Assembly: GCA_001793235.1 (NCBI GenBank)
Contig: MGHM01000020.1
Coordinates: 33,677-97,676 of the forward strand
Reading direction: 5' to 3'
Source: Candidatus Woesebacteria bacterium RIFCSPLOWO2_01_FULL_44_24b
GTDB taxonomy: Bacteria; Patescibacteriota; Microgenomatia; UBA8517
Length of the DNA: 64,000 nucleotides
Position 1 is the stretch's first letter. Each line of letters opens with the position of its first letter. The notes below the pieces were generated by a model that did not search any database, was not told the origin of the DNA, and saw only the letters and a list, made by a program, of their open reading frames with translations. Of this stretch, positions 6,476 through 23,880 are shown one piece after another. A program made the position numbers and the translations under genes.

Positions 6476-6521
6476 TTGTCATGCCACCTTTCATTTGGTT
6501 TATTCCTGGACCTCAAAATTG

Positions 6522-6641: not shown

Positions 6642-6826
6642 ATTTTAAGGTCCAAGCTTTGTATTTTACACTTTGAATAACTGGAAGAAAAGATTTTGTC
6701 ATTATACGAAATCAAACGTCATTGGACCAATTCGCACCAGTAAGCTTAACGACTTGCGTCGCTTCCACTGCTGGCCGATTAAACCGATGTTCTCTCGGAG
6801 GTCTCATAACGAACCCTCATCTTAGG

Positions 6827-6863
<37 letters not shown>

Positions 6864-7096
6864 ATGGGAATGTAGCTACCCGGCGCTGCCACTGATGTGA
6901 CAACCGGCACACTAGGGATTCCCCCATCCCGGTCCTCTCGTACTGGGGACAGCTCCCTTCAAGGTTCAACGCACACACCGGATAGAGTCCGAGCTGTCTT
7001 GCGACGCTCTGAACCCAGCTCACGTAGCACTTTAACGGGCGAACAGACCGACCCTTGGGAGGTACTTCCCCCCCAGGATGTGCTGAGCCGACATCG

Positions 7097-7938: not shown

Positions 7939-9294
7939 AGGTAGCGAACCGCATCGTCGATATGGACTCTCGGATGCGACTACTCTGTTATCCCCGGCGT
8001 AGCTTTTATCTATTAAGCTCCGTCCGCACCCATTGCGAAACGGAGGATCACTAAGACCTACTTTCGTACCTGCTTGGCCCATCGGCCTCGCAGTCAAGCT
8101 GGCTTATACCTTTGCGCTTACCCCACGATTTCCATCCGTGGTTAGCCAACCTTTGCGTCCCTGCGTTACCTTTTTGCAGGGTACCGCCCCAGTAAAACTG
8201 CCCATCTGACACTTTTCCCGGACGCGTTTCAAGCGTCCCTGAGTAAGATCTGCCACATTTTAAAGAGAGGTGTTACATTGGCGTCCCGCAAAGCGGGACT
8301 CCCTCTTACGCTAGACAATTAAAATGCACAGCTCAATGCCAGAATACAGTAAAGCTGCACGGGGTCTTTTTGTCCTGGTGTGTGTAGGCCGCGTCTTCAC
8401 AGCCATCGCAATTTCGCCGAGTGATAGTTTAAGACAGTTGTCAGCTCGTTACGCCTTTCGTGCGGGTCTGAACTTACCAGACAAGGAACTTCGCTACCGT
8501 AGAACAGTTATAGTTACTGCTGCCGTTTACTGGAGCTTCATTTCAGAGCATCCCGCCAAAGGCGGGGCACCCATCCACTTAACTTACCAGCACTGGGCAG
8601 GCGTCAGCCCGTATACTTAAGCTTTCGCTTTTGCACGGACCTGTGTTTTTGGTAAACAGTCGACTGACAATCGTTAGCTGCGATCCCTACACCATAAATG
8701 GTGAGGGACAGGACATCTTGCGAACTTACGTCCAGCTAATTTGCCGAGTTCCTTAAACTACCTTCTCTCGCTCGCCTTGGTCTACTCGACCAACCCACCT
8801 GTGTCGGTTTGCGGTACGGCTCGCTTTGATACTCACTGCGAATTTTTTCTTGTAAACTGAAACGGTCAGAATTGGCGAACTCTCGCTCACCTCTGCATCG
8901 CCGCTTAATTAATCATCTTGATGGGTTTTCCAATCAAGACTATCTCACGGCTTACACTCCAATCAATAAGAAGCTCTGACGCTCCAATTCAGTCAATCCC
9001 CAGTTGCATGCAGTCCCTTGCGGGTGCAAACGCATCAAAACAAGTACGGGAATATTAACCCGTTATCCATCGACTACGCCCTTAGGCCTCGCCTTAGGTG
9101 CCGACTTACTCCCGGAGGACGAACCTCGCCGGGAAAACCTTGGGTTTTCGGCGTCCCGAATTCTCATCGGGATTTCACGCTACTCATACCGGCATTCTCA
9201 CTTCCAAGCGCTCCACCATGGTTTCCACCACAGCTTCACTGCACTTGGAACGCTCCCCTACCACCTCGCTCGCAGAGCGAGAAATTCTAAATTT

Positions 9295-9425
9295 AAAATT
9301 TGAAATTTTTAATCAAATAAAAATACTAAAATCTAAACTTCAAAAATTAGAAATTAGATATTAAAAATTGATTTAAAATTAAAAACTAAAAACTAAAAAT
9401 TCTCGTTCTACGAACGAGATCCGTA
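9295..9425 (-). other. AT-rich expansion of ~130 nt inside 23S rRNA at the helix-45 position
   Basis: Between the conserved flanks 'GGGCTAAAGTATACTACCGAAGCTACGG' and 'GGTAGGGGAGCGTTCC' (reverse-complement sense), the normal ~25-nt helix is replaced by '...aaaatactaaaatctaaacttcaaaaattagaaattagatattaaaaattgatttaaaattaaaaactaaaaactaaaaat...'. Bases 9382-9410 of the tail are a noisy ~7-nt period rather than a clean tandem repeat. Confidence 0.5.
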
Positions 9426-9502
9426 GCTTCGGTAGTATACTTTAGCCCCGCGAAATCTTAGGCGCGGAATCCCTTGACCAGTGAGCTGTTACGCTATCTT
9501 TA

Positions 9503-9537
<35 letters not shown>

Positions 9538-10923
9538 TTTTGGAATTCCACTTCCTTAAACACTGAGTATACATTTTGGGACCTTAACTGACGGTCTGGG
9601 TTGTTTCCCTTTCGTCTCTAGAGCTTAGCCCCTAGAGACTGTCTAGTCCGTTAATGTGATTGTAATTCGGAGTTTGATTAAATCGCCTTGGTTTCCCTTG
9701 GCGACCCATTCAGTAGCTCTACCTCCAATCCACCTAGCGGACCACGGTGCCCATACACCTTTCGGGGAGAACCAGCTATCTCCAGGCTCGTTTGGCATTT
9801 TACCCCTAGCCACAAGTCATCCGAGCATATTGCAACATACAACGGTTCGGCCCTCCTTCCCGCTTTCGCGGGAATTCAGCCTGCTCATGGCTAGATCGCC
9901 TGGTTTCGGGTCTATCATGCACTACTAATTGCACTATTAGTACTCGCTTTCGCTGCGCTTTTGAGCCATAAGCCCTTAAGCTTGCAGTACACGATAACTC
10001 GCCGGTTCATTCTTCAATAGGCACGAGATCACTCGCGCTCTGCGCGAAAGTTACGAAGTGATTAAGTTAATAAGTTATTAAGTTTTGTTTTACTTAATCT
10101 CTTAATCGCTTAATGTCTTCATATCTTTTGTGCAAAGCACAAGCTCTCTCGGTTTGTCTGCAAACAGTTTCATGTTCTATTTCACTGTGCGTTCCGCACT
10201 TCTTTTCACCTTTCCCTCTCGGTACTTGTTCACTATCGGTCCTTTGTTATATTTAGCCTTGGAGGATGGTCCCCCCAGATTCCCACAGATTGTGACCGTG
10301 GTACTCAGGTGCCCACTAGGCTGATAATTAGTTTTGCTTACGCGAGTTTCACGCTCTTTGCTCATCCATTCCAGAATGTTCTGCTACCAATTATCAATGC
10401 CATATCGTGAGTCCTACAACCGATCACCCCATTAGATAAAAATATCTAACGGGGCAAAATTTGGGCTGTTGCCGTTTCGCTCGCCGCTACTTAGGCAATC
10501 TCGTTGATTTCTCTTCCTCACCCTACTTAGATGTTTCAGTTCGGATGGTTCCCTCGCCTGCAGCTATATTCCGGTAAACCGGAAATTTTACCACAGTGTG
10601 GCCCAGGATGAACTGGGCCAGGTTTCCCCATTCGGACACCGCCGGATCAAAGCTTCGTGGCAGCTCCCCGACGACTTTCGCGGCCATGTACGTCCTTCAT
10701 AGGTAACAAAGGCCAAGGTATCCACTGTTTGCATTTTTTAGACGCTTGATTCCGTACAATCCCGCTGAGCGGGACGGACACAACTCCCTCGAGTTGTATA
10801 CGGAATCGCCTTTTCTTCCAGTTGTCAAAGTACAAAATATTAGAGTTAAAGAGTAAAAGAGTAAAAGGTAAAAGTTTGGTCTTTCACTCTCTTGCTCTCT
10901 CGCTCTTTCACTCTAAGTGGGTG

Positions 10924-10997
10924 GACCTGGGCGGACTCGAACCGCCTACCTCCTCATTGCAAATGAGGTGTTCAAACCTGCTAAACTTCAGGCCCAA
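10924..10997 (-). tRNA. tRNA-Ala (anticodon UGC)
   Basis: Reverse complement 'GGGCCTGAAGTTTAGCAGGTTTGAACACCTCATTTGCAATGAGGAGGTAGGCGGTTCGAGTCCGCCCAGGTCCA' folds as a cloverleaf with a G3:U70 pair and anticodon loop 'TTTGCAA'; it sits immediately upstream of the 23S gene. Confidence 0.85.
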
Positions 10998-11040
10998 GTC
11001 TTACAGATTTTAAAAATAAATGTGCATGGTTTTTTCTTCG
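10998..11040 (-). promoter_or_regulatory. Candidate promoter region for the tRNA-Ala/23S/5S unit
   Basis: AT-rich segment 'catgcacatttatttttaaaatctgtaagactt' with a -10-like 'TAAAAT' ~12 nt upstream of the tRNA-Ala 5' end, lying downstream of the upstream gene's terminator. Confidence 0.3.
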
Positions 11041-11075
11041 AAACAAAAAACCGAGCTTCTAAGCTCGGCAATCCA
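11041..11075 (-). terminator. Rho-independent terminator for the 11186-12436 gene
   Basis: Minus-strand sense 'CCGAGCTTAGAAGCTCGG' is an 8-bp GC-rich stem, followed by 'TTTTTTGTTTCG'. Confidence 0.6.
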
Positions 11076-11185
11076 TGAGTCCTATCCTTTTTCAGGCACG
11101 CACTAGGTGCGGCTTTGTTGTAATAGCAGATTAAAAGAAATTCTCATTAAGTTTCCGAACTTAGGTAAAAAGTATTATATAGTAC

Positions 11186-12436
11186 TTACAGAGCCCCGTC
11201 AACCAAGCTCCAAATGTCCCTGACTCCATCGCTTTTTGGCTTTCTTGGGGAGCTCATCATCTTTTCAAAGACTCCCGCCTTCAAGCACCATTGTATAAAT
11301 TCTGCAGATTTTTTGGGGTTTGCCATCAGTGGTATGCCTCGCCATTTTTTCGCTTTAGCTATCACACTCTTGTCTCTCGCCCAGAGCCGTTCTTGCTCTT
11401 CTTTTGATGGAATTAAATTGTTCCTAGCCAGAAACCAGAGATTATCATACTCCTGCCTCCCAACGGGTTGAGTAAAAAGAAGGATTACGCCACCTGTTTG
11501 CCTTGGAGTATAAAGGGCCTTAAAGGCCTGCTCGCTTGGCTTGGTCACCTCAAGTGCAAGTGTATTTTTTTGCATTACCTTCTCATAGCCCACTACCACC
11601 AGTCTGTCGTAGGAATGGCTATAAACTTCGGTGTATGCAAGCTTACCCATCTCAGCCAAAAACTGCTTAGTATAGGCCGAGTCCCTCGAGGTCACATAAA
11701 ACCTGAAACGGCTCTCAAGCTCATTTAGCCTCATGGCAAGTTCGCGGTAGAAATCAAGCCCAACGGCCGCACCTGAAACCGGCAAGCTCACTTTTATTTT
11801 GACCTTACTTTGAGCTTGAGCCTGCTTAAACTTGTACTCAAACTTGGACTCTTTGAGCTCATGCCCGAGTTTCAGGCTCAAGGGATAATGAACTACCTCA
11901 GTGTGAGGAGCGCCAAGCCTGAGCCCAGTGAGCCTACTCGGAACTATGGTGAGGTCAGCCCCGGGTACGCTCCAGGCTTGTTGGGGGCTATCATCGGTAA
12001 CGACCACAACGAGCTTGACCTCAAATCCTTCAGCCTCAAGGTCAGGTTTGATGGCACTAATCTGGTGGGCTAGCCCAAAGTGCGTAGACACAAATACCAC
12101 TCGTTTGGGGCTGGGCTTAAGGCCTGTGAGCATAGCCTCAACCTGAGGCTGAAGTGCCTTCGCCCTTAGCCTCAAGATGTGTGTATAAATGCTCGTGAAA
12201 ACACGCTCAGCAACCCCGTACTGCAGGGCTTCGGCAAGCTCACGGAAAACCGGATTATTTGAGCTCAGGCGGTGCATAAAAGTGGTGGTCGAGTCCAACG
12301 AGCTAAATAAGCTCACCCTAGCACCCTTGGGCAAGCCCTCCATCAAGGCATAAGCTACTCGAAGGTGCCCAAGGCCAGCCTTGGCAAAAGTAAGCACAAT
12401 GAGCGTGTCGGGTGAGGTAAGATTTTCGAGAGCCAT
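11186..12436 (-). CDS. Hypothetical protein, possibly a GT-B fold glycosyltransferase (MurG/MGDG-synthase-like)
   Basis: 416-aa ORF with the N-terminus 'LIVLTFAKAGLGHLRVAYALMEGL', a Rossmann-like start with a conserved His. GC content is visibly higher than in surrounding genes. The assignment is weak. Confidence 0.45.
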   Translation of the reverse strand: MALENLTSPDTLIVLTFAKAGLGHLRVAYALMEGLPKGARVSLFSSLDSTTTFMHRLSSNNPVFRELAEALQYGVAERVFTSIYTHILRLRAKALQPQVEAMLTGLKPSPKRVVFVSTHFGLAHQISAIKPDLEAEGFEVKLVVVVTDDSPQQAWSVPGADLTIVPSRLTGLRLGAPHTEVVHYPLSLKLGHELKESKFEYKFKQAQAQSKVKIKVSLPVSGAAVGLDFYRELAMRLNELESRFRFYVTSRDSAYTKQFLAEMGKLAYTEVYSHSYDRLVVVGYEKVMQKNTLALEVTKPSEQAFKALYTPRQTGGVILLFTQPVGRQEYDNLWFLARNNLIPSKEEQERLWARDKSVIAKAKKWRGIPLMANPKKSAEFIQWCLKAGVFEKMMSSPRKPKSDGVRDIWSLVDGAL

Positions 12437-12487
12437 AATTCAGTTTACATTATTGACAAACATACATACATATGTAATTATGTATGT

Positions 12488-12748
12488 ATGCCAAACCTAG
12501 TCAGAACGACCATCTTACTTCCCGAAGATTTAGCTCAAGCAGCCAAGATGAAGGCATTACAAGAGAAAAAATCCCTCAGCGAGCTGATTCGCGAGACACT
12601 TGAGCCCAGAGTTTCCGGAGCCAAACCTGCTAAACCAGCTGGCGACCCAATGGCCAGCTTGGGAGTGTTTAAGATTGGAATCGATAAAATATACAACAGA
12701 CGATCTGAGCTATATGAAGAGCACCTCCAAAACAAACTCAGTGGCTAA
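12488..12748 (+). CDS. Ribbon-helix-helix antitoxin (VapB/CopG-like)
   Basis: 86-aa protein 'MPNLVRTTILLPEDLAQAAKMKALQEKKSLSELIRETL' with an RHH signature; its stop codon overlaps the downstream PIN-domain gene start. Confidence 0.55.
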   Translation: MPNLVRTTILLPEDLAQAAKMKALQEKKSLSELIRETLEPRVSGAKPAKPAGDPMASLGVFKIGIDKIYNRRSELYEEHLQNKLSG

Positions 12749-13178
12749 ACAAGTACTTTTCGACACAAATGTGCTTATATATTCGCTCGACTCAGCATCG
12801 CCTCAATTTGAGGCTGTGCGCAAATTGTTTGCCAGAGTAAAAAATGGTGAGATTGAGGCTGTTGCCGCTCATCAAAACATCGTTGAGACAGAAAATGTAC
12901 TCGTCAATATCTATAAGAAGAGCTTAGATGAGGCAAGAGACGCAATTGACAATGTCTTGTTTAGCTTCAATTTCAGCTTAATCTGTCCGCTTCCGAGCAC
13001 AATTTCGTTATATCACAGACTAATCCAAAGGTACTCAAGCAAGACTAAAATTGATATCTATGATATTTATTTAGCCTCGACTACGCTCGTTAACGGAGTA
13101 GACTCGATAGCAACATACAATACCAAGCATTTCGAAGGCCTTGGGATTACTGTTATTTCTCCTGGAATTGGTACTTGA
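12742..13178 (+). CDS. PIN-domain ribonuclease toxin (VapC family)
   Basis: 'VAKQVLFDTNVLIYSLD...' is a PIN N-terminal motif with conserved acidic residues. GTG at 12742 overlaps the antitoxin stop codon ('GTGGCTAA'); an alternative in-frame ATG lies at 12714. Confidence 0.65.
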
Positions 13179-13335
13179 CACCTATCACTCTCTGTTGTAT
13201 ATTGCTAACTATCAATTAGTACTTCTTTAATCTTCTATATAACGATTAGCTTAATCTACTAAATAAATATTAGATTTTAAACATCCATTTGATTTTCCCG
13301 GAGCGGGGTTTTTGTTTCAATAGACTTGTTTTAGA

Positions 13336-13376
13336 GGAGGGGCATCCTGTTCCTTTTGGGAACAGGGCTCCCCTTC
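13336..13376. terminator. Long imperfect hairpin between convergent genes (candidate bidirectional terminator)
   Basis: 'ggaggggcatcctgttcc ttttg ggaacagggctcccc' has an 8-bp perfect inner stem plus a GC-rich extension, followed by a second hairpin 'tctgagacacagtctcaga'. Confidence 0.3.
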
Positions 13377-13514
13377 TGAGACACAGTCTCAGAACTTTTC
13401 CATCGGAAACGAACAATAGAAAGGTAAACAATTGCTGTTTACTCATTACTATTTATTAGTGACCGGTGAAGTACCTTAACATTGCAAGCGATTCTGTGAA
13501 GCTCATCAAAGAGC

Positions 13515-14084
13515 CTAACTCTTTTTGCTAAATGGCAGTAAATCTTTTTTGGTAAGAAGTACGGAGCGAAGGCAAGTTTTCAAAAGTGCATAGCTGGGCT
13601 TAGCCTGAAAGCCAATGTAACAAATAGTTTTCCCGGCCGCCTGGCATTCAGAAACTGCTGGAATTAAATCCGAGTCGGAGCTAATTAAATATGCGGTGTC
13701 GTATTTATCACGAAAGGCACCAACCAAAAGTCGGGTTGCGATATTTACATCAACGCCCTTTTTGTGGTAAGCCTTAGCAACCTTAAGCATATAACCAAGC
13801 TATACCTCAATGCCTTGACCAATAAGATTGCCAACAAGAATATTCTGAGAGCGAAATAGTTCGTAACTTTTAGGATTATTTCTCTCAGTTCTGATAGCGC
13901 CGACAAAATAAACCGAACGTATCAGTTTTTCGGTCTTAACCAGAGACTTAAAAAAGCCCATATATGAAAACTTAAGGCTACCTCTGATACCAAGATCTTT
14001 AAGGCGGTGGTAAAAATTACTGCCGTCCACAAAGACAACTGCACGAGGTTTGGAGGATTTCTTGCTCATTATTAAATGTAGCAC
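13515..14084 (-). pseudogene. NYN/LabA-like (PIN-related) domain gene interrupted by a single in-frame TAG
   Basis: ORFs 13800-14084 ('AVVFVDGSNFYH...YFVGA...') and 13515-13790 ('KKGVDVNIATRLL...AYLISSDSDLIPAV...GKTICYIGF') are in the same frame and together form one LabA/NYN domain. They are separated only by TAG (13800-13802) plus three codons ('IEV*LGYMLKV'). TAG is used as a normal stop elsewhere, for example in radA. Confidence 0.6.
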
Positions 14085-14299
14085 AAAAATACCCCGTGAC
14101 TAAAAAATCACGGGGGGAGTTAGTAAAAGTATAGTAGCAAAAAGAAGTTGATATTTCAAGTATTAAAAAGGCTTATACAGGCTTTTTGACGAGCTTCACA
14201 GTAAGAAAGCCCCACGTCGCTCCATTCGGAGCTATGTTAGGGGTGAAAAAAGAAAGAAGTGCTCGCCATGTGGCGAAGCTTTACGTGGACTTCTTGTGG

Positions 14300-14420
14300 G
14301 TCACACAGAGGTTAGGAATGAAGTAGCAAGTAGAATGTAGAAAGTAGTATGGGAATTTTGTATCTCCCTTGCTACATGCTTCATGCTACATACTACATGT
14401 TTCCTAGCTTCTCTGTGACT
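14300..14420. repeat. ORF-less inverted-repeat copy of the heptamer-repeat IVS-cassette ends, with an extra outer inverted repeat
   Basis: Left arm 14321-14357 'aagtagcaagtagaatgtagaaagtagtatgggaatt' and right arm 14371-14400 'gctacatgcttcatgctacatactacatg' are inverted copies of the inverted repeats flanking 57583-57951. An outer imperfect inverted repeat flanks them ('tcacacagag', 14301-14310; 'ctctgtgact', 14411-14420). Confidence 0.5.
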
Positions 14421-14460
14421 CAATAAGGAGTTCACTAATCATGTCCAAGGAGGACAAGAA

Positions 14461-15777
14461 ATGCGTACATGGATTATCGGATTAATTGTGGTAGTCGCCA
14501 CACTTTCTGTCGGCCTACTGCCAGCAATGGCGTGGGATGGGCATGTCGATGTATCTTATTCGTGCGACGGCGGGCTCACGTATTACGAGGCTTCTGCTTC
14601 GTCGTCGTGGCCTGGTTTTCAGGTTGATTGGGGGGGAGATTCCCATCGAGGGAGTCTCTCTGAAGGAGAATCTGCATCAGGCACAGCCGTGTTTTTCTGG
14701 CCGGAAGTAGGTCATCACTTTACGGCTTCATGGTCGGCAGAATTTCAGGTAGAATGCCAATCTGAAGAACCAAACCATCCGCCACGGCGCACCGTTGTGC
14801 ACCACAACAACCGACCTCGCCCATTCAACACAATGTGCGTTTTGAACAACCCAGATGGGCTGTTCTCAAGCGGTGGCGTTGAGGGGCTCAACGGCGCGTT
14901 CTGGACCTACCAGAATGATGGCGGCTATGAGGGGAACCTTGTGGTTGCAAACATCAACTGGCGAACGTCTGACGGCACAAGTTTCGTGCTAGCGGGAGAC
15001 CCTTCTGGGAATTCCACACAGGCTAGGGTTGTCGACTTAGACAACGCCAATCCCTGGTCACGCTGTGAGTTGGTTCAGCCCGAGTCGCAAGGCCAAGGTG
15101 GTGGTCCAGCAAATCTTCCTGAAATTCAGGATTGGTGGTGGGACGTAGTCTACACCAAGGAAGAGGCTGAACTTATCTACTTGCGAGTGTCGAACATTTT
15201 TGAGGATGAACGTGATCCTGCATTCTGCTGGGAACACGCTCCTGAAAAACCACCCGCGTGGGTACGTGTCCGTATCATGAATGGTGAGGAGCTCATCATG
15301 AGTTTCGAGCCGACTTTCATTGAGACGGAGCGCCGGCCCAACAATATTAGTTGCTGGGAATGGGAGTACAACCTTCTACCTGATTGGCATGTGCTTTATG
15401 ACGCCCAGTTCGTAGGGGTTCCGCTTATCACTGAGCGAGTCGACATCTCATATCGTGGGATGGAAAAACCGGCAGCTGGATGGTGGAATGTTCACGAAGA
15501 AGGTCTGGCTCTCTACCCCGGTGACGATGAGTCCCTGCTGTCAGCAGAGATGAACTTCGCACTCAATATTGAGAGCGAAGAAGTTGCTAAAGTAGAAGCC
15601 GAAGAAACGGTAGAATACACCGTTGTCCCAACAGACACGCTGAGCGGCATTTGTGCGCAATTCGGCGCAAACCAGATTTATGGCCAGTCAGGCTGTATCG
15701 AGCAGGTCAAACTGCTTAATGGCCTTGAAGGGTCAATGATCACGGTTGGCCAGGTGCTGATCGTCCCGCAAAGCTAG
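14461..15777 (+). CDS. Secreted protein with a C-terminal LysM peptidoglycan-binding domain
   Basis: Signal peptide 'MRTWIIGLIVVVATLSVGLLPAMA'; a Shine-Dalgarno sequence 'aaggagga' upstream; the C-terminus 'YTVVPTDTLSGICAQFGANQ...VKLLNGLEGSMITVGQVLIVP' is a LysM domain. GC content and codon usage are atypically high for this window. Confidence 0.7.
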   Translation: MRTWIIGLIVVVATLSVGLLPAMAWDGHVDVSYSCDGGLTYYEASASSSWPGFQVDWGGDSHRGSLSEGESASGTAVFFWPEVGHHFTASWSAEFQVECQSEEPNHPPRRTVVHHNNRPRPFNTMCVLNNPDGLFSSGGVEGLNGAFWTYQNDGGYEGNLVVANINWRTSDGTSFVLAGDPSGNSTQARVVDLDNANPWSRCELVQPESQGQGGGPANLPEIQDWWWDVVYTKEEAELIYLRVSNIFEDERDPAFCWEHAPEKPPAWVRVRIMNGEELIMSFEPTFIETERRPNNISCWEWEYNLLPDWHVLYDAQFVGVPLITERVDISYRGMEKPAAGWWNVHEEGLALYPGDDESLLSAEMNFALNIESEEVAKVEAEETVEYTVVPTDTLSGICAQFGANQIYGQSGCIEQVKLLNGLEGSMITVGQVLIVPQS

Positions 15778-16308
15778 TCTCACTAAAAAGTGAAACGAAC
15801 ACCTCCCTTTCCATTTGCAATAGAACGCAAATCCGAATACTACGCTTGAAAGACAACGTGGCTAGCCTTTACGGCAAGTAGGATTATGCAGTCTATAGCA
15901 TACAACGATAGCCGCTAACACAGGGCGAATCAGGGACTTGTTAGTAGTTTTACTTCTCTTTCTTTCCTAGCTTCGGCTAGTTAAATCGCATTGCAACTCG
16001 CTCAGCTTAAGCTGACGCACGAAATTTCCGTTCGCGGAAACTGGTGCTCGGTCTAAGATCCGTAGCGAGTTTGACTTTATTTCAGGTGGAGATAGCTCTG
16101 CTTGAGGAAGATTGGAAATTTGGGAAATCCGTGCGGATTTCATTTTAGGAATTTATTCCTAATCTCTAAACCATTTTCTCCTTTCATCTTTTCCTCTCGC
16201 CTCTCTATCTCCCCCTGTACCATTTACCGGTGTATGCCGGTACTGAAGAGCTCAAAAGAGCGAAATGGTAGTACTTTAAAATCTAAAACGAAGTTGGTAT
16301 ATTGGAGT

Positions 16309-16623
16309 ATGGCAAAGAGGAGAACGCTGACTCAGGCCGATGTTGATGTTTTGAAAAAAGAAGTCTCATCTGCGGTATTGAAAGCAGTAGTACCTCAGAT
16401 AAAGACAGCCGTGTCTTTGGTAATAACAACGGAGTTATCCGAACAGGAAGAAAAATACGAGAAGAAGCTCGAGGAGTTCAAAAGCGAGTTCTTTGACAGG
16501 GTTGATCCTATTCTCAAGGAAGTTCCTGCAAGCCGTGAAGAACGGACAGTTCAGGCACATCAAATCGCCAATCTTTCAGACAGAGTTGAGAAGGTTGAAA
16601 AACACCTCGGACTGGCAGCTTAA
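16309..16623 (+). CDS. Hypothetical coiled-coil protein
   Basis: 'MAKRRTLTQADVDVLKKEV...EEKYEKKLEEFKSEFFDRV...' is charged and helical. The ORF-track entry (16102-16623) probably overextends the 5' end, and the start codon is uncertain. Confidence 0.35.
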   Translation: MAKRRTLTQADVDVLKKEVSSAVLKAVVPQIKTAVSLVITTELSEQEEKYEKKLEEFKSEFFDRVDPILKEVPASREERTVQAHQIANLSDRVEKVEKHLGLAA

Positions 16624-16740
16624 CCCAACTTCATAATAGTGAGTAGTGCAAAATGGTTAGCCATTTCTAGTTGACCATTTTTCATTACTCACTACCCAGT
16701 TATAACAAATACTAGATAGTAGAATTACTAGATAACAAAA

Positions 16741-16770
16741 ATCCCCCATCGAAAGGTGGGGGATTTTTTG
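16741..16770 (+). terminator. Rho-independent terminator
   Basis: 'ATCCCCCATC gaaa GGTGGGGGAT' is a 10-bp stem, followed by 'TTTTTTG'. Upstream at 16634-16700 lies a separate 20-nt inverted repeat ('tagtgagtagtgcaaaatgg' / 'ccatttttcattactcacta'). Confidence 0.55.
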
Positions 16771-16821
16771 TGGCTTAAATTTACTTATCAGCCTCGGTAT
16801 GGTACTATTTTCGTACTTCTG

Positions 16822-16893
16822 GGGTGCGTGGCTCAGTGGTAGAGCGTCGTCCTGATAAGACGAAGGTCGATGGTTCGATCCCATCCGCACCCA
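16822..16893 (+). tRNA. tRNA-Ile (anticodon GAU)
   Basis: 'GGGTGCGTGGCTCAGTGGTAGAGCGTCGTCCTGATAAGACGAAGGTCGATGGTTCGATCCCATCCGCACCCA' has anticodon loop 'CTGATAA'. This is the tRNA normally found in the 16S-23S spacer; here it is on the strand opposite to the rRNA genes. Confidence 0.85.
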
Positions 16894-16921
16894 CCCAACC
16901 TACTTCTGATACAATTAAATC

Positions 16922-19054
16922 ATGGCTGAGCTAACTACTCTTTTTCTCAAAGTCCCCCGCGGCAATGAATATACTCCTGAGGCGGCGCAGACTTTTTTAT
17001 CCGCCTTAACCCAGCTTAATTTTCTTTCCCGCTGGGAAAGACTCACCGGCAGGCACCCTCAGCCTTTGGCCCTTGAGATTGTCCTTCATAACCAACAAAT
17101 CCGCTTTATGATTGCCGCAGACGCGGAGCTTGCGCCATTTGTGGAGGCGCAGCTCCAAAGTAACTACCCCCTCGTTATAGTCGAAAAAACTAAAGACCCA
17201 TTGTCTCAAGCAGGAATTTTAAACACGCAAACATTAAAACTTGCCCACGGCAATTACTATCCACTTATGACTTACCCCAGTTTTACCGATGTGGACCCGT
17301 TAAGCTCGGTGCTTACAGTTTTGTCCAAAGCCCCGGCGGAGGAGCTAATAATAATTCAAATTGCGCTCGAGGCAATAAGCGGCTCGTGGCAGCAGGCTAC
17401 TCAAAAAACTCTTGAGCGTGGCATTCGTGACCGCGAAGGCAACACCACTCCCCTTCCGGACGCCGCGATTATAAATGAGAAAATAAGTTTTCCCGGCTTT
17501 GGAGTGACTTTGCGAATTGCAGCCAAGCAAAAACATACACTAAATACTTTAGTCAGTGCCTTTGGGGTATTTACAAAAACGGGCGGCAATTCCATTTCTG
17601 TTAAAAAGAAGGGCTTGCTTTCCAAAGACCGGACGCTTGATTACCTTGTTTCAAGGCGCGTTAGCGGAAGCGATGTTTTAAATATTGCCGAGCTCGCGAC
17701 TCTTTGGCACTTGCCAAGCGAGAAAGTCAAAATCAGCTCGATTGTCTGGGGCAATGCAGTCCTTTCAGAGGCTCCGGACAACTTGCCATCGGCCCTTGGA
17801 ATGAGCGAGGATGAGCGCAAGGAAGTCAACTTTTTTGCCAAAACTCAGTTTAAAAATACCGAGGCGATATTCGGGCTAAAGGATGTGGACCGCAGGCGCC
17901 ACGTCTGGGTTGTCGGCAAAACCGGAACCGGTAAGTCAACTCTCATTGCCAACATGGTTATTGATGACCTGAAAAAAGGCCGGGGTGTGGCAGTCATTGA
18001 CCCACATGGCGACCTTTGCGAGACGGTCCTCAACTACATTCCAAAAAACAGGATTAACGAAACTATATACTTTAACCCGGCGGACAGAGATTATCCAATT
18101 GTCATTAATCCCCTGGAAGTAAACACCAAAGAGGAAGCGGAGCTTGTAGTTTCCGGGCTTATGTCAATTTTTACCAAAGTCTGGGCCAACGTCTGGTCTG
18201 CCCGCATGGAGTATATACTTAGAAACTCGCTTCTGAGTTTAGCCGAAATCCCGGGTTCAACGTTGATTGATGTCTTGAGGCTTCTGTCCGAAGAAGATTA
18301 TAGAAACAAAATGGTTCAGAAAATGCATGACGAGACCTTGAAAAGCTTCTGGGTCAATGAATTTAATAAAATGCCAGACAAACTCCGCGCCGAGGCAGTC
18401 TCGCCGATTCAAAACAAAGTCGGCCAATTTGTGACTTCCCCCATGGTAAGGAGTATCTTAAGCCAGTCAAAAAGCACAATATCTCTGGGACAGGTTATGG
18501 ACCGCGGCATGATATTTTTGGCCAACCTTTCCCAGGGGCGCTTGGGCGAGGACAATGCGGCCTTACTCGGGGCAACTCTCATCACTAAGTTTCAACTGGC
18601 CGCAATGCACAGGGTTGATGTCCCCGAGAGTGAGCGCCATGATTTCCACTTGTTTGTGGATGAGTTCCAAAATTTTGCAACTGACAGCTTCATCAAAATT
18701 CTCTCAGAAGCCCGGAAATACAGGCTTAACTTGATGCTTGCCAACCAATACATGGGGCAAATTCCAGAGGGTGTCCAGAAGGCAATTTTAGGAAATGCCG
18801 GTTCACTCGTGAGCTTTTCGGTTGGTGCTGACGACGCGGCCATTATTCACAAAGAATATGCCGAGGTTTTCTCACAAAATGATTTGGTGAATTTGGCGAA
18901 CTTCCAGATTGCGGTGAAGCTTATGATTGATGGCCACAGCACCCGACCGTTTCTGGCCCACACTCTCCCGCTCCCTGCATCAAGTAACCTGAATAAACAA
19001 AAAGTATTGGAGGTTTCAAGACAGAGATGGAGTAAGAAGATTAAAGAGGGTTAG
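16922..19054 (+). CDS. FtsK/TraD/HerA-superfamily P-loop ATPase (TrwB/TraD-type coupling-protein-like ATP-binding domain; no N-terminal transmembrane segment)
   Basis: Walker A 'VVGKTGTGKSTLIAN' followed by 'VAVIDPHGDL', and Walker B 'HLFVDEFQNFAT'; 710 aa. The architecture matches conjugative coupling-protein or DUF87-type ATPases. Confidence 0.6.
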   Translation: MAELTTLFLKVPRGNEYTPEAAQTFLSALTQLNFLSRWERLTGRHPQPLALEIVLHNQQIRFMIAADAELAPFVEAQLQSNYPLVIVEKTKDPLSQAGILNTQTLKLAHGNYYPLMTYPSFTDVDPLSSVLTVLSKAPAEELIIIQIALEAISGSWQQATQKTLERGIRDREGNTTPLPDAAIINEKISFPGFGVTLRIAAKQKHTLNTLVSAFGVFTKTGGNSISVKKKGLLSKDRTLDYLVSRRVSGSDVLNIAELATLWHLPSEKVKISSIVWGNAVLSEAPDNLPSALGMSEDERKEVNFFAKTQFKNTEAIFGLKDVDRRRHVWVVGKTGTGKSTLIANMVIDDLKKGRGVAVIDPHGDLCETVLNYIPKNRINETIYFNPADRDYPIVINPLEVNTKEEAELVVSGLMSIFTKVWANVWSARMEYILRNSLLSLAEIPGSTLIDVLRLLSEEDYRNKMVQKMHDETLKSFWVNEFNKMPDKLRAEAVSPIQNKVGQFVTSPMVRSILSQSKSTISLGQVMDRGMIFLANLSQGRLGEDNAALLGATLITKFQLAAMHRVDVPESERHDFHLFVDEFQNFATDSFIKILSEARKYRLNLMLANQYMGQIPEGVQKAILGNAGSLVSFSVGADDAAIIHKEYAEVFSQNDLVNLANFQIAVKLMIDGHSTRPFLAHTLPLPASSNLNKQKVLEVSRQRWSKKIKEG

Positions 19055-19768
19055 TTATCTGTTGTTCCACCAGTCTCGAAGTTCATCAATCACTTCTCCC
19101 GTTTCTTCCCTTAACTCACCAAGTATTTCTTCGGCCTGCTCGGCTGTGTCATTTAAGAATTCCCGTGCCTCATCTGTAAAATCAGGGCACTGTATCGTTT
19201 CGCCTGTGTGATTGATAATTTCGTCCAAGGCATAATAGGGTGCCGTAACTTCCCCACCAGGTAATGGTAAGGCCTCATCGTCAAGCACTCGTCCCGAGGT
19301 TGCATTAATCCTGAGGCCGTATGGCAATGCTTCACTCTCGGTAACTGGCCAGTAATATACATTAAACTCGTCGTCTGTTCTTGCAAGAGGCTCTCTTTTG
19401 CCCAAATGTGGTTCTGCCATTTCTAAAGTGCAATTCACATTATCCATAAAACCGTATACTTGGCCTTGCCCGTCTGCCAAGACTGCTACAACTCTGTTTC
19501 TATCGGGACCGAATATATCTTGTCTATACTCCAGATAGCCTATAATTCTGGGCGACTCTAGGGCGACTTGACCTTCTCTTCTATCTATCGCAGTTAATGC
19601 TCGAATATTTGCTGCATCTGTTGCCGCATACGGATCAGTCTCTGGAGTTGCTTCTTGTGTTGGATTTTGCTCTAGAGTTTGCAAGAAGACAGGAGCGAAG
19701 AAGCTTACTCCTCCTGCGGCCGCTAACTCAATAAACTCTCTTCTTGTTAAACCCTTTCTTTCTTCCAC
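19055..19768 (-). CDS. Hypothetical exported protein (twin-arginine-like signal)
   Basis: N-terminus 'MEERKGLTRREFIELAAAGGVSFFAPVF' resembles a Tat signal (T-R-R-x-F-I); acidic C-terminal region. Confidence 0.5.
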   Translation of the reverse strand: MEERKGLTRREFIELAAAGGVSFFAPVFLQTLEQNPTQEATPETDPYAATDAANIRALTAIDRREGQVALESPRIIGYLEYRQDIFGPDRNRVVAVLADGQGQVYGFMDNVNCTLEMAEPHLGKREPLARTDDEFNVYYWPVTESEALPYGLRINATSGRVLDDEALPLPGGEVTAPYYALDEIINHTGETIQCPDFTDEAREFLNDTAEQAEEILGELREETGEVIDELRDWWNNR

Positions 19769-19788
19769 AACTTATTATACTTGAGGTG

Positions 19789-20964
19789 TCAATTCGTAAA
19801 TTCAAAACTGGCCAGCATATTGTCAAAGACTTGTTGTTCCCCTTTATCAACATTATCATCCCAGGTCATCTGAATAACCGTATTTTTATACCAGATAACC
19901 ACATATGCCCGCCACTTGCCGGTCAGCTCTCCTTGAATAACCTGTGCATCCCCACCGCCTAGTTTTTTAAGTTCAATCTTTGGCGGGTTACTCCAGCCGG
20001 ACAAGGTTCTCGTTGATGAGATAATCTCGCTTGCGGTAAGAGCGGCATTAGTAAGGTTACTTGAAGTCTGAATAACTAAGTTGTTTACTGTCTTATTACT
20101 CGCGTCGCGGCTTATTTCTGACTTATTGGCATAGATCCCCTCTTTTTCGTCTTTCTCGGCGGTCAGCGTCCATTCTGACGGATACTTGATGGTGTAATTA
20201 AAAGTAGTATTTTCAAAAGTCTGCCAGCCTGAGGTGTCGACCAAAAAAATAATACTATCTATGATTTTTTGGAATTCTTCTTCTTTTTCTGGAGAATCAA
20301 CAAAAAAATTTATTATTAATTCATTGACAACAATCTGCCACTGATCATCGAATGAAGCTTTTACAGCATCTTTACCTCCTACTCTTATCTCTTCAACTTC
20401 CGCTTCTGTAAAATCCGTAAACCCTGGTTTTTCTGGATAAATAGTCAGTAATTCTGTATTGTCTTCCCCAATACTCACAGAATTTTCCTTTTCATCAAGC
20501 ACTTCATAATCCTCAGGGATAGTCATCTGAACTAATAAATCTATATTTTTATACAGCTTTGTGGGCACAGGTGTGGGCGTGGGAGCCGCAACCACCAGAG
20601 CTTCGGTTACTAAAGGGGTGATAGTTGGGGCCGGCGCGCGCATGGTGTAATTATTTCCCGTAACGCGGGCTACAAAATAAATAGTGGCAACCAGAAGTAC
20701 CGCCGGGATGAGAAACAAAAGCTTTCGCAAGGGATGATGCTTGACCATAACATTGGGGCTTGACGATGATGGTGGCGGTGGCACAATTTCCACAACCGGC
20801 GCCTCCGCCACTGGTTGGGGAACTACTTCAACAGTCGGTGTAATCTCTTGGGCTGGCACCTCCTCAACACTTAAATTTGGACGATGACTTGTATCAAAGC
20901 CCTCCGGCGAGCCCCGGGCAGAATCACTTGCCCCGAGCGTAGTCTCTGACGAAGTGGGGTCCAT
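19789..20964 (-). CDS. Single-pass membrane hypothetical protein with a Pro-rich N-terminal region
   Basis: 391-aa ORF; Pro/Val/Glu-rich N-terminus, a transmembrane segment 'LLFLIPAVLLVATIYFVA', then a large extracytoplasmic domain. Confidence 0.5.
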   Translation of the reverse strand: MDPTSSETTLGASDSARGSPEGFDTSHRPNLSVEEVPAQEITPTVEVVPQPVAEAPVVEIVPPPPSSSSPNVMVKHHPLRKLLFLIPAVLLVATIYFVARVTGNNYTMRAPAPTITPLVTEALVVAAPTPTPVPTKLYKNIDLLVQMTIPEDYEVLDEKENSVSIGEDNTELLTIYPEKPGFTDFTEAEVEEIRVGGKDAVKASFDDQWQIVVNELIINFFVDSPEKEEEFQKIIDSIIFLVDTSGWQTFENTTFNYTIKYPSEWTLTAEKDEKEGIYANKSEISRDASNKTVNNLVIQTSSNLTNAALTASEIISSTRTLSGWSNPPKIELKKLGGGDAQVIQGELTGKWRAYVVIWYKNTVIQMTWDDNVDKGEQQVFDNMLASFEFTN

Positions 20965-22060
20965 GGTTATTCATTGTATACCAATTAATTCCACCTTGTC
21001 ATTCCCGCGAAAGCGGGAATCCACACTAATAATCTGGTCTGGTTACAATAGATTCCGGATCAAGTCCGGAATGACAATGAAGTTTCTCTTGGCAGCCTGA
21101 CAGCGATTGAAATATGGAACCCTACGACCCCATCACCATTTCAAGTGACTAAATTAGTTTTCACTTCAAATTAAAGTCTTGCTAATTTAATAACCAGAAA
21201 TGGTGAGGGGAAGAGTTCGGTTTATTTTCCCCAAAACCGTGACTTTAAAGGGGGGTGTTAATCCCGTGAGATAGTCTTGCGACATCTAACAGGACGTGTG
21301 TTTATTCACACTCCTTAGAAAGGAGGTGATCCATCCGCTCCTTCCAGAACGGATACCTTGTTACGACTTAAGCCTTATCGCTAGTTTCACCTTCTTCCGA
21401 TCACTCGGAATTCGGGTGCCCCTAACTTTACTGCCTTGACGGGCGGTGTGTACAAGACCTGAGAACGTATTCACCGGGATTTAGCTGACTCCCGATTACT
21501 ACCAATTCCGCGTTCATGAGGGCGAATTGCAGCCCTCAATCCCCACTGAGACATCGTTTATGGGATTAGCTCCGCCTTACGGCTTGGCAACCCATTGTCG
21601 ATGCCATTGTATTATGTGTGTAGCCCTGGACATAAGGGCCATGCTGACCTGACGTCGTCCCCACTTCCTTCTGATACAAAGATCAAAAAGTCTCCTATGA
21701 TTATTCAACATAGGACAGGGGTTGCGCTCGTTACCCCACTTAAGGGAACACCCCACGGCACGAGCTGACGACGGCCATGCAACACCTGTGCTATCATCCC
21801 AAATAAATTTAGGATCATCCCAATTTTCATCAGAACTAAAACGATAGCATGTCAAGTCCAGGTAAGGTTCTTCGGTTTGTCTCGAATTAAACCACATAAT
21901 CCACTGGTTGTGCAGGTCCCCGTCAATTCCTTTGAGTTTTAAACTTGCGTTCGTACTCCCCAGGCGGTCCGCTTCACGCGTTAGCTTACGCCCCTCTCCC
22001 GCTAAGCGGGAGAAAAAAGCTAGCGGACATAGTTTACGGCTAGGACTACAGGGGTCTCTA

Positions 22061-22928
22061 CTATATTGTTACATTCTCTAATTAATAGAGAAGATCTTGT
22101 CATTTCTGCAAGATTCTACATATTACTATGCAGCTCGGACTATATCATAACCCGTCCCGTTAGATAATTTATCTAATGGGATTGGGTCCCGACATGTAGT
22201 CTCTACGGGGTCTGTATTCTCGCTGAATAAGGAAGAAATTTATATTTAAATTCCGGTAAAATGAATTTGAAAACTTGTTTTCGAAGTTTACTCAAACTTT
22301 GTTTAGGAAAATAAATTATATCTCTACCCTTATTTTTGTGAGTTAAAGTTTCAATCTCAAAATTAGTGAGTATTGCTTCTTGCAACCTTTGTACATCTTT
22401 CGCAGTAAATGAATGAGTTTGGATGGACAGTCCAGCGTATTCTGCCGAACCATCATCCATAATCCATACTGCAAAAGAAAGTGGATTGCTTAGCAATACA
22501 TTTATGTTTGCAGGCACAATCTTTTTAAAAGACGGGTAAAATAAGTCATAATATGCAGTAAATTCTGGATGGGTATGAGTGACGAATTCGGCAAATTTAT
22601 AATCTTTTTTACCAACTCGCTGCTCAAAAACATTAACATCCATTGAAATAAAATTTGCAAATACAAAATATTTATATAAAACTAATGGAAGTTGATTTCT
22701 CGAGTGCTTAATATGCAATCGAGCATTCTTTCCATGAAGTTTTATTGCTCCATCTCCTAAAAGTGTCCCTACCAACACAGCCTTTTGAGTTTCACTTAAA
22801 CAGACTTCCCTCGGTATTGTCCTCATAATTTCAGTATACTAAAGATATACCGAAATAGTAGGATATTCACCGATACAGTCAGTTTTTCTCACTGCTAATT
22901 ACTTAGCAGGGGGACTAGAGTTTTACTC
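22061..22928 (-). mobile_element. Group I intron in 16S rRNA at the E. coli position ~788 site
   Basis: Exon 1 ends '...GGGAGCGAAAGGGAT' (E. coli '...GGGGAGCAAACAGGAT'), and exon 2 resumes 'TAGAGACCCCTGTAGTCC' (E. coli 'TAGATACCCTGGTAGTCC'). The 5' exon ends in U and the intron ends in G; the ~868-nt insert contains an intact LAGLIDADG ORF. Confidence 0.7.
22203..22826 (-). CDS. LAGLIDADG homing endonuclease (intron-encoded, intact)
   Basis: 207-aa protein with both LAGLIDADG motifs ('AVLVGTLLGDGAI' and 'SFAVWIMDDGSA'), lying entirely within the 16S intron. Confidence 0.8.
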   Translation of the reverse strand: MRTIPREVCLSETQKAVLVGTLLGDGAIKLHGKNARLHIKHSRNQLPLVLYKYFVFANFISMDVNVFEQRVGKKDYKFAEFVTHTHPEFTAYYDLFYPSFKKIVPANINVLLSNPLSFAVWIMDDGSAEYAGLSIQTHSFTAKDVQRLQEAILTNFEIETLTHKNKGRDIIYFPKQSLSKLRKQVFKFILPEFKYKFLPYSARIQTP

Positions 22929-23842
22929 CATCCCTTTCGCTCCCCTAGCTGTCGTTCCTCAGCGTCAAGATTTGCTTAGTCACCCGCCTTCGCCTTCGGA
23001 GTTCCTGTCGATATCAACGGATTTCACCCCTACACCGACAGTTCCAGTGACCCCAACATTCTTCAAGCACGTAAGTATCGCGTCCCTTTCCCCAGTTAAG
23101 CTGGGGTCTTTGAAACGCGACTTTACGTGCCGCCTACGAAACACTTTACGCCCAATAAATCCGGGCAACGCTTACACCCTTCGTATTACCGCTGCTGCTG
23201 GCACGAAGTTAGCCGGTGCTTATTCTACCCCGCCTTTCAGAGGGGTCAAAAGAAGTTTACAACCCGAAGGCCTTCATCCTTCACGCGGCGTCACGGCATC
23301 AGACTTGCGTCCATTGTGCACGATTCCCTGTTGCTGCCACCCGTAGGTGTATAGGCCGTGTCTCAGTCCTATTCTGGGGGTACGCGCTCTCACGCCCCCT
23401 AACCGTCGTAGTCTTGGTAAGCCATTACCTCACCAACAAACTGATGGTGCGCAGGTTCCTCCATCGGCGGGCAGTTAAGCCCTTTGCCCTTGCGGGATTA
23501 TGCGGTATTACCCCACCTTTCGGTGGACTATTCCACACCAATGGGTAGATCCCTACGTGTTACTCAGCCGTTCGCAACTGTTCCGGCAAGCCGGAACCGT
23601 TCTACTTGCATGCATAAAGTACGCCGCCAGCGTTTACCCTGGGCCAGGATCAAACCCTCAATTAAGTGGATTTATATTAAAATCCTGGGACCAATTCCAA
23701 TCGCTGTCAGACTGTCAAAGAGCTTTAGCTCGAAGACCCCTTCGTAGTTCCGGTAAAACCGGAACGAAGTGGGGTCAAAGTTCTAAAGTAATCTTGAAGT
23801 TATTAACCCCGCCTTGTTCGGCTGGCAAGTTAACTTGATTAG

Positions 23843-23880
23843 TGGGAGTAGTATAACAAGCGAGGTGAAGTTAGTCAATC
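23843..23880 (-). promoter_or_regulatory. 16S rRNA promoter (sigma70-like)
   Basis: Minus-strand sense 'gaTTGACTaacttcacctcgcttgtTATACTact' has a -35 TTGACT (plus 23873-23878), a 17-bp spacer and a -10 TATACT (plus 23850-23855), ~175 nt upstream of the mature 16S 5' end. A near-identical promoter is reused at 25040-25076. Confidence 0.55.

Follow-up and report, generated by a model that had tools for sequence, protein, structure and literature searches.

An unlinked rRNA gene layout around an antisense ATPase gene, probably native to a Candidatus Woesebacteria lineage

The arrangement of the ribosomal RNA (rRNA) genes was analysed in a 64,000-nucleotide (nt) stretch of the metagenome-assembled genome (MAG) of Candidatus Woesebacteria bacterium RIFCSPLOWO2_01_FULL_44_24b (Microgenomatia; contig MGHM01000020.1, positions 33,677 to 97,676), referred to below as the window. 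The RNA genes were called with Rfam and ARAGORN, all with E-values of 1e-10 or better. All three rRNA genes lie on the minus strand and within about 17 kb: 16S (21319-23665, 2347 nt; RF00177, 1254 bits), 23S (6711-10748, 4038 nt; full-length match to RF02541, 2294 bits) and 5S (6522-6638; RF00001, 74 bits). The 16S 3′ end (21319) and the 23S 5′ end (10748) are 10,570 bp apart. The gene for tRNA-Ala(UGC) (10918-10996, minus strand; ARAGORN and Rfam) is located 169 nt upstream of 23S on the rRNA strand. The gene for tRNA-Ile(GAU) (16822-16895, plus strand; ARAGORN and Rfam, 73.5 bits) is located 5.8 kb (5825 bp) from tRNA-Ala on the opposite strand, and ends 26 nt upstream of a gene encoding a 710-amino-acid (aa) ATPase. 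Together with tRNA-Ile, five plus-strand open reading frames (ORFs) lie between the rRNA genes. The window therefore departs from the canonical rrn operon, in which both tRNAs are found between 16S and 23S, on the rRNA strand and in a spacer of a few hundred bp. An earlier note on this DNA, made from the sequence alone, had described a separation of ~10.5 kb, a tRNA-Ala still adjoining 23S, and a tRNA-Ile inverted relative to the canonical order, ~6 kb off and directly upstream of the ATPase gene; the present gene calls confirm all of these points.

The ATPase gene (16922-19054, plus strand) encodes a VirD4/TraD-like P-loop protein comprising DUF8128 and a DUF87/TrwB_AAD_bind region according to Pfam (PF10412, 38.2 bits against a cutoff of 20.5; PF01935, 38.5 bits; PF12696, 25.9 bits). 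It shares with the type IV coupling proteins VirD4, TraD and TrwB a P-loop NTPase core of the TrwB/VirD4 type (Pfam TrwB_AAD_bind, DUF87, TraG-D_C), but differs from them in its DUF8128 N-terminus and in scores far below the curated cutoffs (best NCBIfam scores of 42.7 against 250 for the CD1115 family and 41.1 against 366 for SXT TraD), with no type IV secretion gene found among the scanned ORFs. The resemblance to TrwB in PDB is limited to the P-loop region. No relaxase, VirB4 or mating-pair-formation genes were present among the 20 ORFs scanned with Pfam (10 in or adjoining the spacer and 10 of the largest elsewhere in the window) or in the Pfam tables within ~10 kb of the ATPase gene. The protein has 6,892 detectable homologues, with more than 100 at 63-66% identity across Woesebacteria and other Patescibacteria, and a published survey of 2,918 Patescibacteria genomes counted 5,713 VirD4 homologues, most of which are not near virB4 (PMC12102498). 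As a widespread chromosomal gene of the Patescibacteria, it is not a hallmark of a mobile element, and its interpretation as a marker of conjugation was rejected; the earlier note had described it as FtsK/TraD-like. The ATPase start codon is preceded, at a distance of 6 nt, by an extended -10 box (TGATACAAT, 16907-16915). The TGnTACAAT form of the box is kept in 8 relatives, ending 6-8 nt before the ATG without a Shine-Dalgarno sequence, and suggests a leaderless ATPase mRNA.

Relatives of the locus were collected as homologue neighbourhoods at falling ATPase identity and from scans of a genome collection and of metagenomes, and the rRNA and tRNA genes were located in all of them. The genome-collection scan yielded mostly distant homologues among the matches listed; the metagenome scan yielded 16 loci. 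In all 15 relatives with contigs reaching far enough, out of 16 with 50-95% ATPase identity, 16S is convergent with the ATPase gene and located 0.17-3.6 kb downstream of it. The tRNA-Ala-23S(-5S) block lies upstream of the ATPase gene in 10 of the 10 relatives whose contigs extend that far, and in 13 of the 14 that contain the gene start, a distance of 21-584 nt separates tRNA-Ile from the beginning of the ATPase gene. A tblastn comparison of the window's spacer proteins with the relatives showed the ATPase at the same position in all. This backbone, in which an antisense ATPase gene separates 16S from the spacer tRNAs, persists down to 50% ATPase identity and ~75-80% 16S identity. A comparison of spacer lengths, which the earlier note had proposed, recovered the same unlinked order with spacers ranging from 3.5 kb (locus L018) to 12.6 kb (L092).

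Two intervals of the spacer vary in length across the relatives, one between tRNA-Ala and tRNA-Ile (0.24-6.4 kb) and one in the convergent zone between the 3′ ends of the ATPase gene and 16S (0.17-3.6 kb). The first interval, the second interval and the whole 16S-23S spacer measure 5825, 2264 and 10,570 bp in the window (100% ATPase identity); 4781, 2111 and 9414 bp in L113 (84%); 5375, 3100 and 11,223 bp in L008 (81%); 4889, 2897 and 10,400 bp in L112 (78%); 6432, 3301 and 12,574 bp in L092 (66%); 4455, 1263 and 8126 bp in L091 (66%); 2323, 260 and 5063 bp in L110 (65%); 235, 3497 and 6088 bp in L093 (64%); 1001, 3646 and 7622 bp in L096 (63%); 6062, 1825 and 10,349 bp in L097 (59%); and 401, 722 and 3535 bp in L018 (50%). 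The remaining contigs gave the convergent interval only, of 2117 bp in L107 (95%), 2903 bp in L101 (89%), 2206 bp in L007 (83%), 3309 bp in L010 (72%) and 174 bp in L011 (52%), or none of the three (L094, 84%). L018 represents a minimal form, in which the 3.5-kb spacer contains the ATPase gene and the two tRNAs only. At least 78 loci of other Patescibacteria lineages, among the matches listed in the genome scan, encode a homologue of the ATPase but lack any rRNA gene or tRNA-Ile within reach; these include Levy-, Shapiro-, Gottesman-, Roizman- and Collierbacteria, Parcubacteria groups, Saccharibacteria and Dojkabacteria. The same was found for 8 further loci of the metagenome scan. In a neighbour-joining tree, the Woesebacteria-type loci form one clade.

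The tRNA-Ile gene and a promoter-like TTTACT-17-TACTAT (16780-16808), which is kept in L007 and L008, form a plus-strand cassette (16780-16895), and the tRNA is flanked by an 8-bp direct repeat, TACTTCTG (16814-16821 and 16901-16908). The tRNA shares the strand of the ATPase gene in the window and in 10 relatives, and that of the rRNA genes in L113 (about 7061-7230), L112 (9805-9926) and L011 (157-296); in L107 and L101 this position is not covered. Comparison of the window (16773-16900) with L113 showed collinear flanks around a cleanly inverted promoter and tRNA. The left breakpoint of the inversion falls directly after GGGGGATTTTTTGTG, and the right breakpoint directly before TACTTCTG, on the side of the ATPase ATG. 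A palindromic hairpin with A-run and T-run flanks (16737-16769), identified by reading of the sequence, delimits the invertible cassette at its left breakpoint and looks like a bidirectional terminator; collinearity with L113 extends as far as GGGGGATTTTTTGTG. No convincing inverted repeats able to drive the inversion were identified at the breakpoints and there was no recombinase at the cassette ends. Partial tRNA-Ile copies adjoin the intact gene in L007, L008, L092 and L110, and two tRNA-Ile sequence types are present at the site, without tracking with ATPase identity. Given both orientations, the partial copies and the two sequence types, the cassette appears to have been flipped and replaced repeatedly. 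All six contigs fetched from the window's own population share one orientation, with no sign of active switching.

The partial tRNA copies are located at ~6395-6414 in L007, at ~9746-9767, 9903-9977 and 4016-4372 in L008, at ~9911-9963 in L092 and at ~9837-9869 in L110. Some are 5′ fragments between the promoter and tRNA-Ile, whereas others correspond to the 3′ part of the tRNA, with 18 to 47 nt inserted in the T-loop. L008 contains tRNA-Ala-like and tRNA-Ile-like copies with homologous T-loop inserts of ~47 nt.

Upstream of 16S, the promoter scan identified a promoter-like TTGACT-17-TATACT with a TG element (23878-23850, minus strand), in agreement with the consensus promoter placed by the earlier note at 23843-23880. 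Conservation extends this site to a promoter and leader segment (23710-23878, minus strand) that includes the motif pair AAGTTAACTT...TTAATAACTTCA and a boxA-like GCTCTTTGACAGTC (23723-23710). The promoter, the leader motifs and boxA are kept upstream of 16S in 8 relatives. The 16S leader pairs with the 3′ trailer at a folding free energy (dG) of -58 kcal/mol, with values of -49 to -76 kcal/mol in the relatives, several of which also have a hairpin-plus-T-run terminator right after the 16S processing stem.

A second promoter-plus-leader module is present upstream of tRNA-Ala (11045-11202, minus strand) and is kept in L113, L008, L093, L096 and L110. Its promoter, TTGACG-17-TATAAT (11202-11174), matches the consensus at 11 of 12 positions, and the form TTGAC(G/T)-17-TATAAT is kept upstream of tRNA-Ala in six lineages. 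The leader comprises an invariant motif (AACTTAATGAGAA, 11153-11141; consensus UUAAUGA(G/A)AA, in DNA form AACTTAATGA(G/A)AA), followed by a hairpin with a conserved UGCGUG and then by an intrinsic-terminator-like hairpin with a T-run (11069-11045). The terminator and the AT-rich promoter-like region that had been noted here correspond to the hairpin at 11069-11050 and the promoter at 11202-11174. The terminator-like hairpin lies 21-48 nt from tRNA-Ala; as the 21-nt gap in L093 leaves no room for a second promoter, the rRNA unit probably depends on passage through the hairpin. The Rfam search of the leader returned no family, with nothing above 17 bits, and RNAalifold analysis of four leaders recovered the terminator alone. 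A long-range helix adjacent to the invariant motif can be drawn in each leader, at -7 to -13 kcal/mol, which is not clearly above chance. The MAFFT alignment of the leaders placed one sequence out of register. Translation of the leader as a tiny ORF was rejected, as the peptides are not conserved and UGCGUG is out of frame in the window. The module may represent a structured leader or a small RNA for the 23S-5S unit.

Between tRNA-Ala and 23S, a boxA-like CTTTGACAACTGG (10818-10830, minus strand) is found in the same place in L008, L091, L092, L093, L096, L097 and L018. It constitutes (10830-10818) the 5′ strand of the 23S flanking stem, the 3′ strand of which lies in the 23S-5S spacer (dG -41.8 kcal/mol). 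The presence of a promoter-like site, a boxA-like element and a stem for each gene argues against co-transcription of 16S with 23S-5S. With opposite-strand genes between them and a conserved promoter-like site for each, 16S and 23S-5S are almost certainly separate transcription units, as judged from these sequence elements, and the suggestion in the earlier note that they are uncoupled is supported.

It is likely that the window represents a native, vertically inherited rRNA layout of a Candidatus Woesebacteria lineage (Microgenomatia), in which the operon was split long ago. A former 16S-tRNA-Ile-tRNA-Ala-23S-5S operon would have been divided, and the conserved ATPase gene now separates 16S from the spacer tRNAs in antisense orientation. 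Expression is predicted to occur in three separate units. The first would consist of 16S, with a promoter and a boxA-like element of its own and flanks that pair with each other, and may read into the 391-aa and 237-aa ORFs located downstream. The second would run from the conserved promoter and leader through tRNA-Ala, the boxA-like element, 23S and 5S, possibly continuing into a gene for an S1 protein. The third would be tRNA-Ile, expressed from a promoter of its own that directly adjoins the leaderless-type ATPase promoter. The length of the 10.6-kb gap would then be due to the two variable intervals, the first of which holds one clade-conserved gene and a putative cargo of VapBC, dead NYN and LysM genes, and the plus-strand orientation of tRNA-Ile in the window would be one of two states among the relatives.

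Several points weigh against this interpretation. All promoter, terminator and boxA assignments were made from consensus or conservation; it is from these, together with the observed positions, synteny and orientation states, that we infer promoter activity, independent transcription and the order of evolutionary events. The scan detected no canonical intrinsic terminator between the 16S 3′ end and the 391-aa ORF in the window, and a terminator-like hairpin sits between the conserved promoter and tRNA-Ala. In L094 (84% ATPase identity), the 301 nt covered upstream of the ATPase gene contain no tRNA-Ile. The absence of the layout from other lineages is that of a sample, namely the genome scan and, within it, the matches listed. 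In the neighbour-joining tree, L011 and L018, which are also rRNA-linked, pair with each other and not beside the Woesebacteria clade; the layout may have arisen twice or been lost often, or the tree may be unreliable. Furthermore, one published genome with a 16S assigned to Woesebacteria by SILVA is operonic, with a 1,660-bp spacer.

The split layout itself is an already published phenomenon for Microgenomatia. Lui et al. (2021) found 27 of 34 circularised genomes of the Candidate Phyla Radiation (CPR) to be unlinked (PMC8172020), with a 16S-23S distance of 2.9-11.7 kb in 9 of 12 circularised Microgenomatia genomes (PMC8172020, S1 Table); the spacers measured here span a matching range. For Patescibacteria, unlinked rRNA genes have also been described as a common trait that is conserved within clades (Brewer et al. 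2019/2020, 10.1101/705046). At 10,570 bp the window is unlinked in the sense of Brewer et al., and its minus-strand rRNA genes with plus-strand genes between them correspond to 'type D, unlinked by distance', defined as same-strand rRNA genes separated by opposite-strand genes (PMC8172020). The likeness to the CPR and Microgenomatia genomes includes the shared strand, a gap of several kb with opposite-strand genes, the pairing of 23S with 5S, clade specificity and insertions with homing endonucleases. However, these papers give distances and categories only (PMC8172020, 10.1101/705046), and the window adds the spacer ATPase, the flipping tRNA-Ile, the cargo intervals and the leader. No published description of the spacer ATPase, the flipping tRNA-Ile cassette, the tRNA-Ala leader or the gene order was found in a literature that was incompletely covered.

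In classical split operons, 16S is transcribed apart from 23S-5S and the arrangement is strongly conserved within a clade; in most cases, tens to hundreds of kb separate the parts, and the spacer tRNAs are scattered. The window differs from these in that all the rRNA and spacer tRNA genes stay within ~17 kb, with tRNA-Ala still next to 23S and tRNA-Ile still located in the interval. Split operons are listed for Rickettsia, Wolbachia, Buchnera, Borrelia, Helicobacter, Thermus/Deinococcus and Dehalococcoidia (PMC8172020, 10.1101/705046). If the interpretation given above is correct, the seemingly 'broken' rRNA operon of a CPR genome would be a stable lineage trait, in line with the published surveys, and neither an error nor a fresh mobile-element event. 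It would offer a testable model for how ultra-small bacteria organise 16S and 23S synthesis without co-transcription, and it matters for approaches in which the rRNA genes are taken to be linked, for example full-operon amplicon sequencing or rRNA-based binning.

The earlier note had proposed mobile or foreign insertions into the former spacer, and a recent mobile element or genomic island in a compact spacer of the window genome, with an inversion carrying tRNA-Ile along, was considered as an explanation. The genes in question include a VapB-like gene (12488-12748, plus strand; DUF6364, 24.3 bits, below cutoff), a PIN/VapC gene (12714-13178, plus strand; Pfam PIN, 36.8 bits), an NYN-domain gene with one TAG codon at 13800-13802 (13515-14084, minus strand; Pfam NYN, 60.5 bits across the stop) and a gene for a 438-aa protein with a C-terminal LysM domain (14461-15777, plus strand; Pfam LysM, 27.4 bits). 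The VapBC pair and the amber-interrupted NYN gene had been recognised from the sequence alone, and this part of the note's gene list is confirmed. By tblastn, VapBC, NYN and LysM have no homologue in the relatives' spacers and are, on this comparison, predicted to be strain-specific cargo; relatives carry other cargo in the same interval (HepT/MNT pairs, HicA/HicB, PKD/SH3 proteins). Both observations favour an insertion, as do the tRNA fragments in L007, L008, L092 and L110, which show recombination at the site. A 23-nt inverted repeat (13494-13516 and 14179-14201), matching at 21 of 23 positions, exactly encloses the NYN gene; the repeat has no other copies in the window and an expectation of 0 by chance. 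It also favours an insertion and is the single local sign of mobility in the window, and the NYN segment may represent a small decayed mobile cassette. A promoter-like site and, in the 5′ region, a terminator-like hairpin belong to the NYN gene itself.

The composition of the segment was also taken into account. The GC content of the LysM gene, 52.7% (z = 2.1), is the highest of the window ORFs, a point in favour of an insertion, and that of a 416-aa ORF next to tRNA-Ala is 49.9% (z = 1.5), relative to 43.5 ± 4.3% for 40 other ORFs of the window. The two genes, which the earlier note had called GC-rich (LysM and 'GT'), are only mildly so. With LysM as the sole outlier, and a weak one, composition was rejected as a sign of foreign origin. 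The 'GT' label was suggested solely by a UniRef name and has no support, as the 416-aa ORF (11186-12436, minus strand) has no match in Pfam, NCBIfam or PDB sequence searches. Its family is unassigned. It has homologues at the same position in L008 (59%) and L092 (40%) and as fragments in L010, and appears to be part of the conserved backbone in part of the clade. A further small ORF, publicly annotated as 104-129 aa (16102-16623, plus strand), matches an L008 ORF upstream of tRNA-Ile over its C-terminal 45 aa.

Against an insertion as the cause of the unlinking, the split, the antisense ATPase gene and the 391-aa and 416-aa ORFs are common to relatives down to 50-66% ATPase identity. The ATPase, a common chromosomal gene in Patescibacteria (PMC12102498), adds nothing to the case for a mobile element. 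No integrase, recombinase or transposase domains were identified in any spacer ORF by Pfam or in the Pfam tables of the relatives' spacers, and no relaxase was found. The search for att-like repeats of the tRNA-Ile 3′ end that had been suggested gave none bounding 10.7-21.4 kb: at up to 3 mismatches, the window contains a single match to each of the 31-nt and 22-nt patterns, and a general search for repeats across the segment showed none that bound it. The sole tRNA-related repeat is a 14-nt match between the tRNA-Ala D-arm and the vapB interior, near chance expectation. The variable DNA lies on the 5′ sides of tRNA-Ala and tRNA-Ile rather than at a 3′ end, so that integration at a tRNA 3′ end is not supported. 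The locus resembles tRNA-gene islands in its strain-specific cargo by the tRNAs (toxin-antitoxin, surface proteins) and in the partial tRNA copies of some relatives, but differs in the lack of any integrase or att repeat found, in cargo 5′ of the tRNAs and in a clade-wide backbone. The relatives are thus largely as the earlier note had foreseen for the case in which its idea fails, unlinked alike, with unrelated gene content and no mobile hallmarks. A recent insertion is therefore an unlikely explanation; the idea holds at most for the cargo segment of VapBC, NYN and LysM (12.4-16.1 kb), and not for the separation of the rRNA genes, the backbone of which is shared by relatives.

A further proposal, equally doubtful, builds on the split. 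It states that the division enabled separate control of the large-subunit rRNA: the tRNA-Ala leader would be an undescribed structured leader or attenuator that sets the output of 23S-5S, and possibly of S1, independently of 16S, and the invertible tRNA-Ile cassette would provide the neighbouring ATPase gene with a movable promoter.

The third possibility, that 16S and 23S-5S still form one long operon, requires polymerase from the 16S promoter to read through 10.6 kb, antisense to the ATPase, tRNA-Ile and LysM genes, and into tRNA-Ala-23S-5S. Directly downstream of 16S and on its strand are a 391-aa ORF (19789-20964, minus strand; same position in L007, L008, L010, L091 and L092) and a 237-aa ORF (19055-19768, minus strand; same position in L007 and L008), both of unassigned family, with no family match in Pfam, NCBIfam or PDB sequence searches. 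As no canonical terminator precedes the 391-aa ORF, read-through from 16S into these two ORFs is possible, and none was detected after 16S or at the junction of the 237-aa ORF with the ATPase gene in the window. BoxA-type antitermination could raise polymerase processivity, and tRNA-Ile keeps the rRNA-strand orientation in L011, L112 and L113. However, a long transcript would run head-on into at least four plus-strand genes and would need to cross terminator-like hairpins at 14115-14092 and 11069-11050. In relatives, strong hairpin-plus-T-run terminators stand right after the 16S stem. The 11/12 consensus promoter upstream of tRNA-Ala is conserved in six lineages, and the flanking stems of 16S and of 23S are each self-contained. 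A single long operon is thus highly improbable.

The stop codons of the convergent ATPase gene and 237-aa ORF abut without a spacer (19052-19057), and there is no terminator-like structure at this junction. At the start of the 391-aa ORF (20962-20978), as at that of the ATPase gene, a -10-like box (TACAAT or TATAAT, often with TGn) ends 6-8 nt before the ATG without a Shine-Dalgarno sequence, which suggests that its mRNA is also leaderless.

Exact protein look-ups matched the window to contig MGGP01000014.1 of a Candidatus Woesebacteria MAG (GCA_001792455.1). The ATPase protein is present in identical form on 17 contigs, six of which were fetched (ENA, JGI, NCBI). These span all or part of 23S-tRNA-Ala ... 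tRNA-Ile-ATPase ... 16S at 100% identity. Although rRNA regions are classic points of breakage and misjoining in short-read metagenomes and the source is a MAG, a misjoin of contigs via rRNA repeats or a chimeric contig across 10.7-21.3 kb, a check of which the earlier note had called for, can be dismissed, because six assemblies from different samples and archives carry the identical arrangement, divergent relatives assembled independently have the same order, and circularised Microgenomatia genomes have comparable spacings.

Both large rRNA genes contain insertions. That in 16S is 869 nt long (22061-22929, with bounds set from intron-less relatives), matches group I introns weakly (30 bits) and contains an intact LAGLIDADG homing endonuclease ORF (22203-22826; PF03161, 132.7 bits). 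The insertion in 23S is ~841 nt long (about 7097-7937, with bounds from blastn against relatives and from Rfam), and its ORF (7226-7456) is a C-terminal LAGLIDADG remnant (23.7 bits to PF03161). The rRNA insertions of relatives are at other positions or absent. An S1 (rpsA-like) gene with S1 domains by Pfam (5375-6475, minus strand) lies 46 nt downstream of 5S on the same strand, with no terminator detected between them (6475-6522) and with RadA farther downstream. An S1 gene also follows 5S in L018, L091, L093 and L110. The large ORFs in the rest of the window are of a housekeeping type and include FtsH, RadA, S1, a Mur ligase, an ATP-dependent DNA ligase and a P-type ATPase.

Elsewhere in the window, a tRNA gene (63662-63938, plus strand) is interrupted in the anticodon loop by a 206-nt group I intron (Rfam RF00028, 67 bits) and was missed by standard ARAGORN. 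Excision of 63693-63898 results in a 71-nt tRNA with the anticodon CAU; ARAGORN -i places the junction slightly differently and reads the anticodon as CAA. The gene fits published reports of tRNA genes with group I introns in Patescibacteria (PMC13011429).

Finally, many public MAG records with the Patescibacteria-type ATPase (L011, L015-L018, L020, L025 and others) bear the names Gammaproteobacteria, Nevskiaceae, Pseudomonadales or Bdellovibrionales in their titles. In L011 and L018, the ATPase gene adjoins a 16S that is 75-80% identical to that of the window. The taxonomy of the Gammaproteobacteria-type records carrying the ATPase looks wrong.

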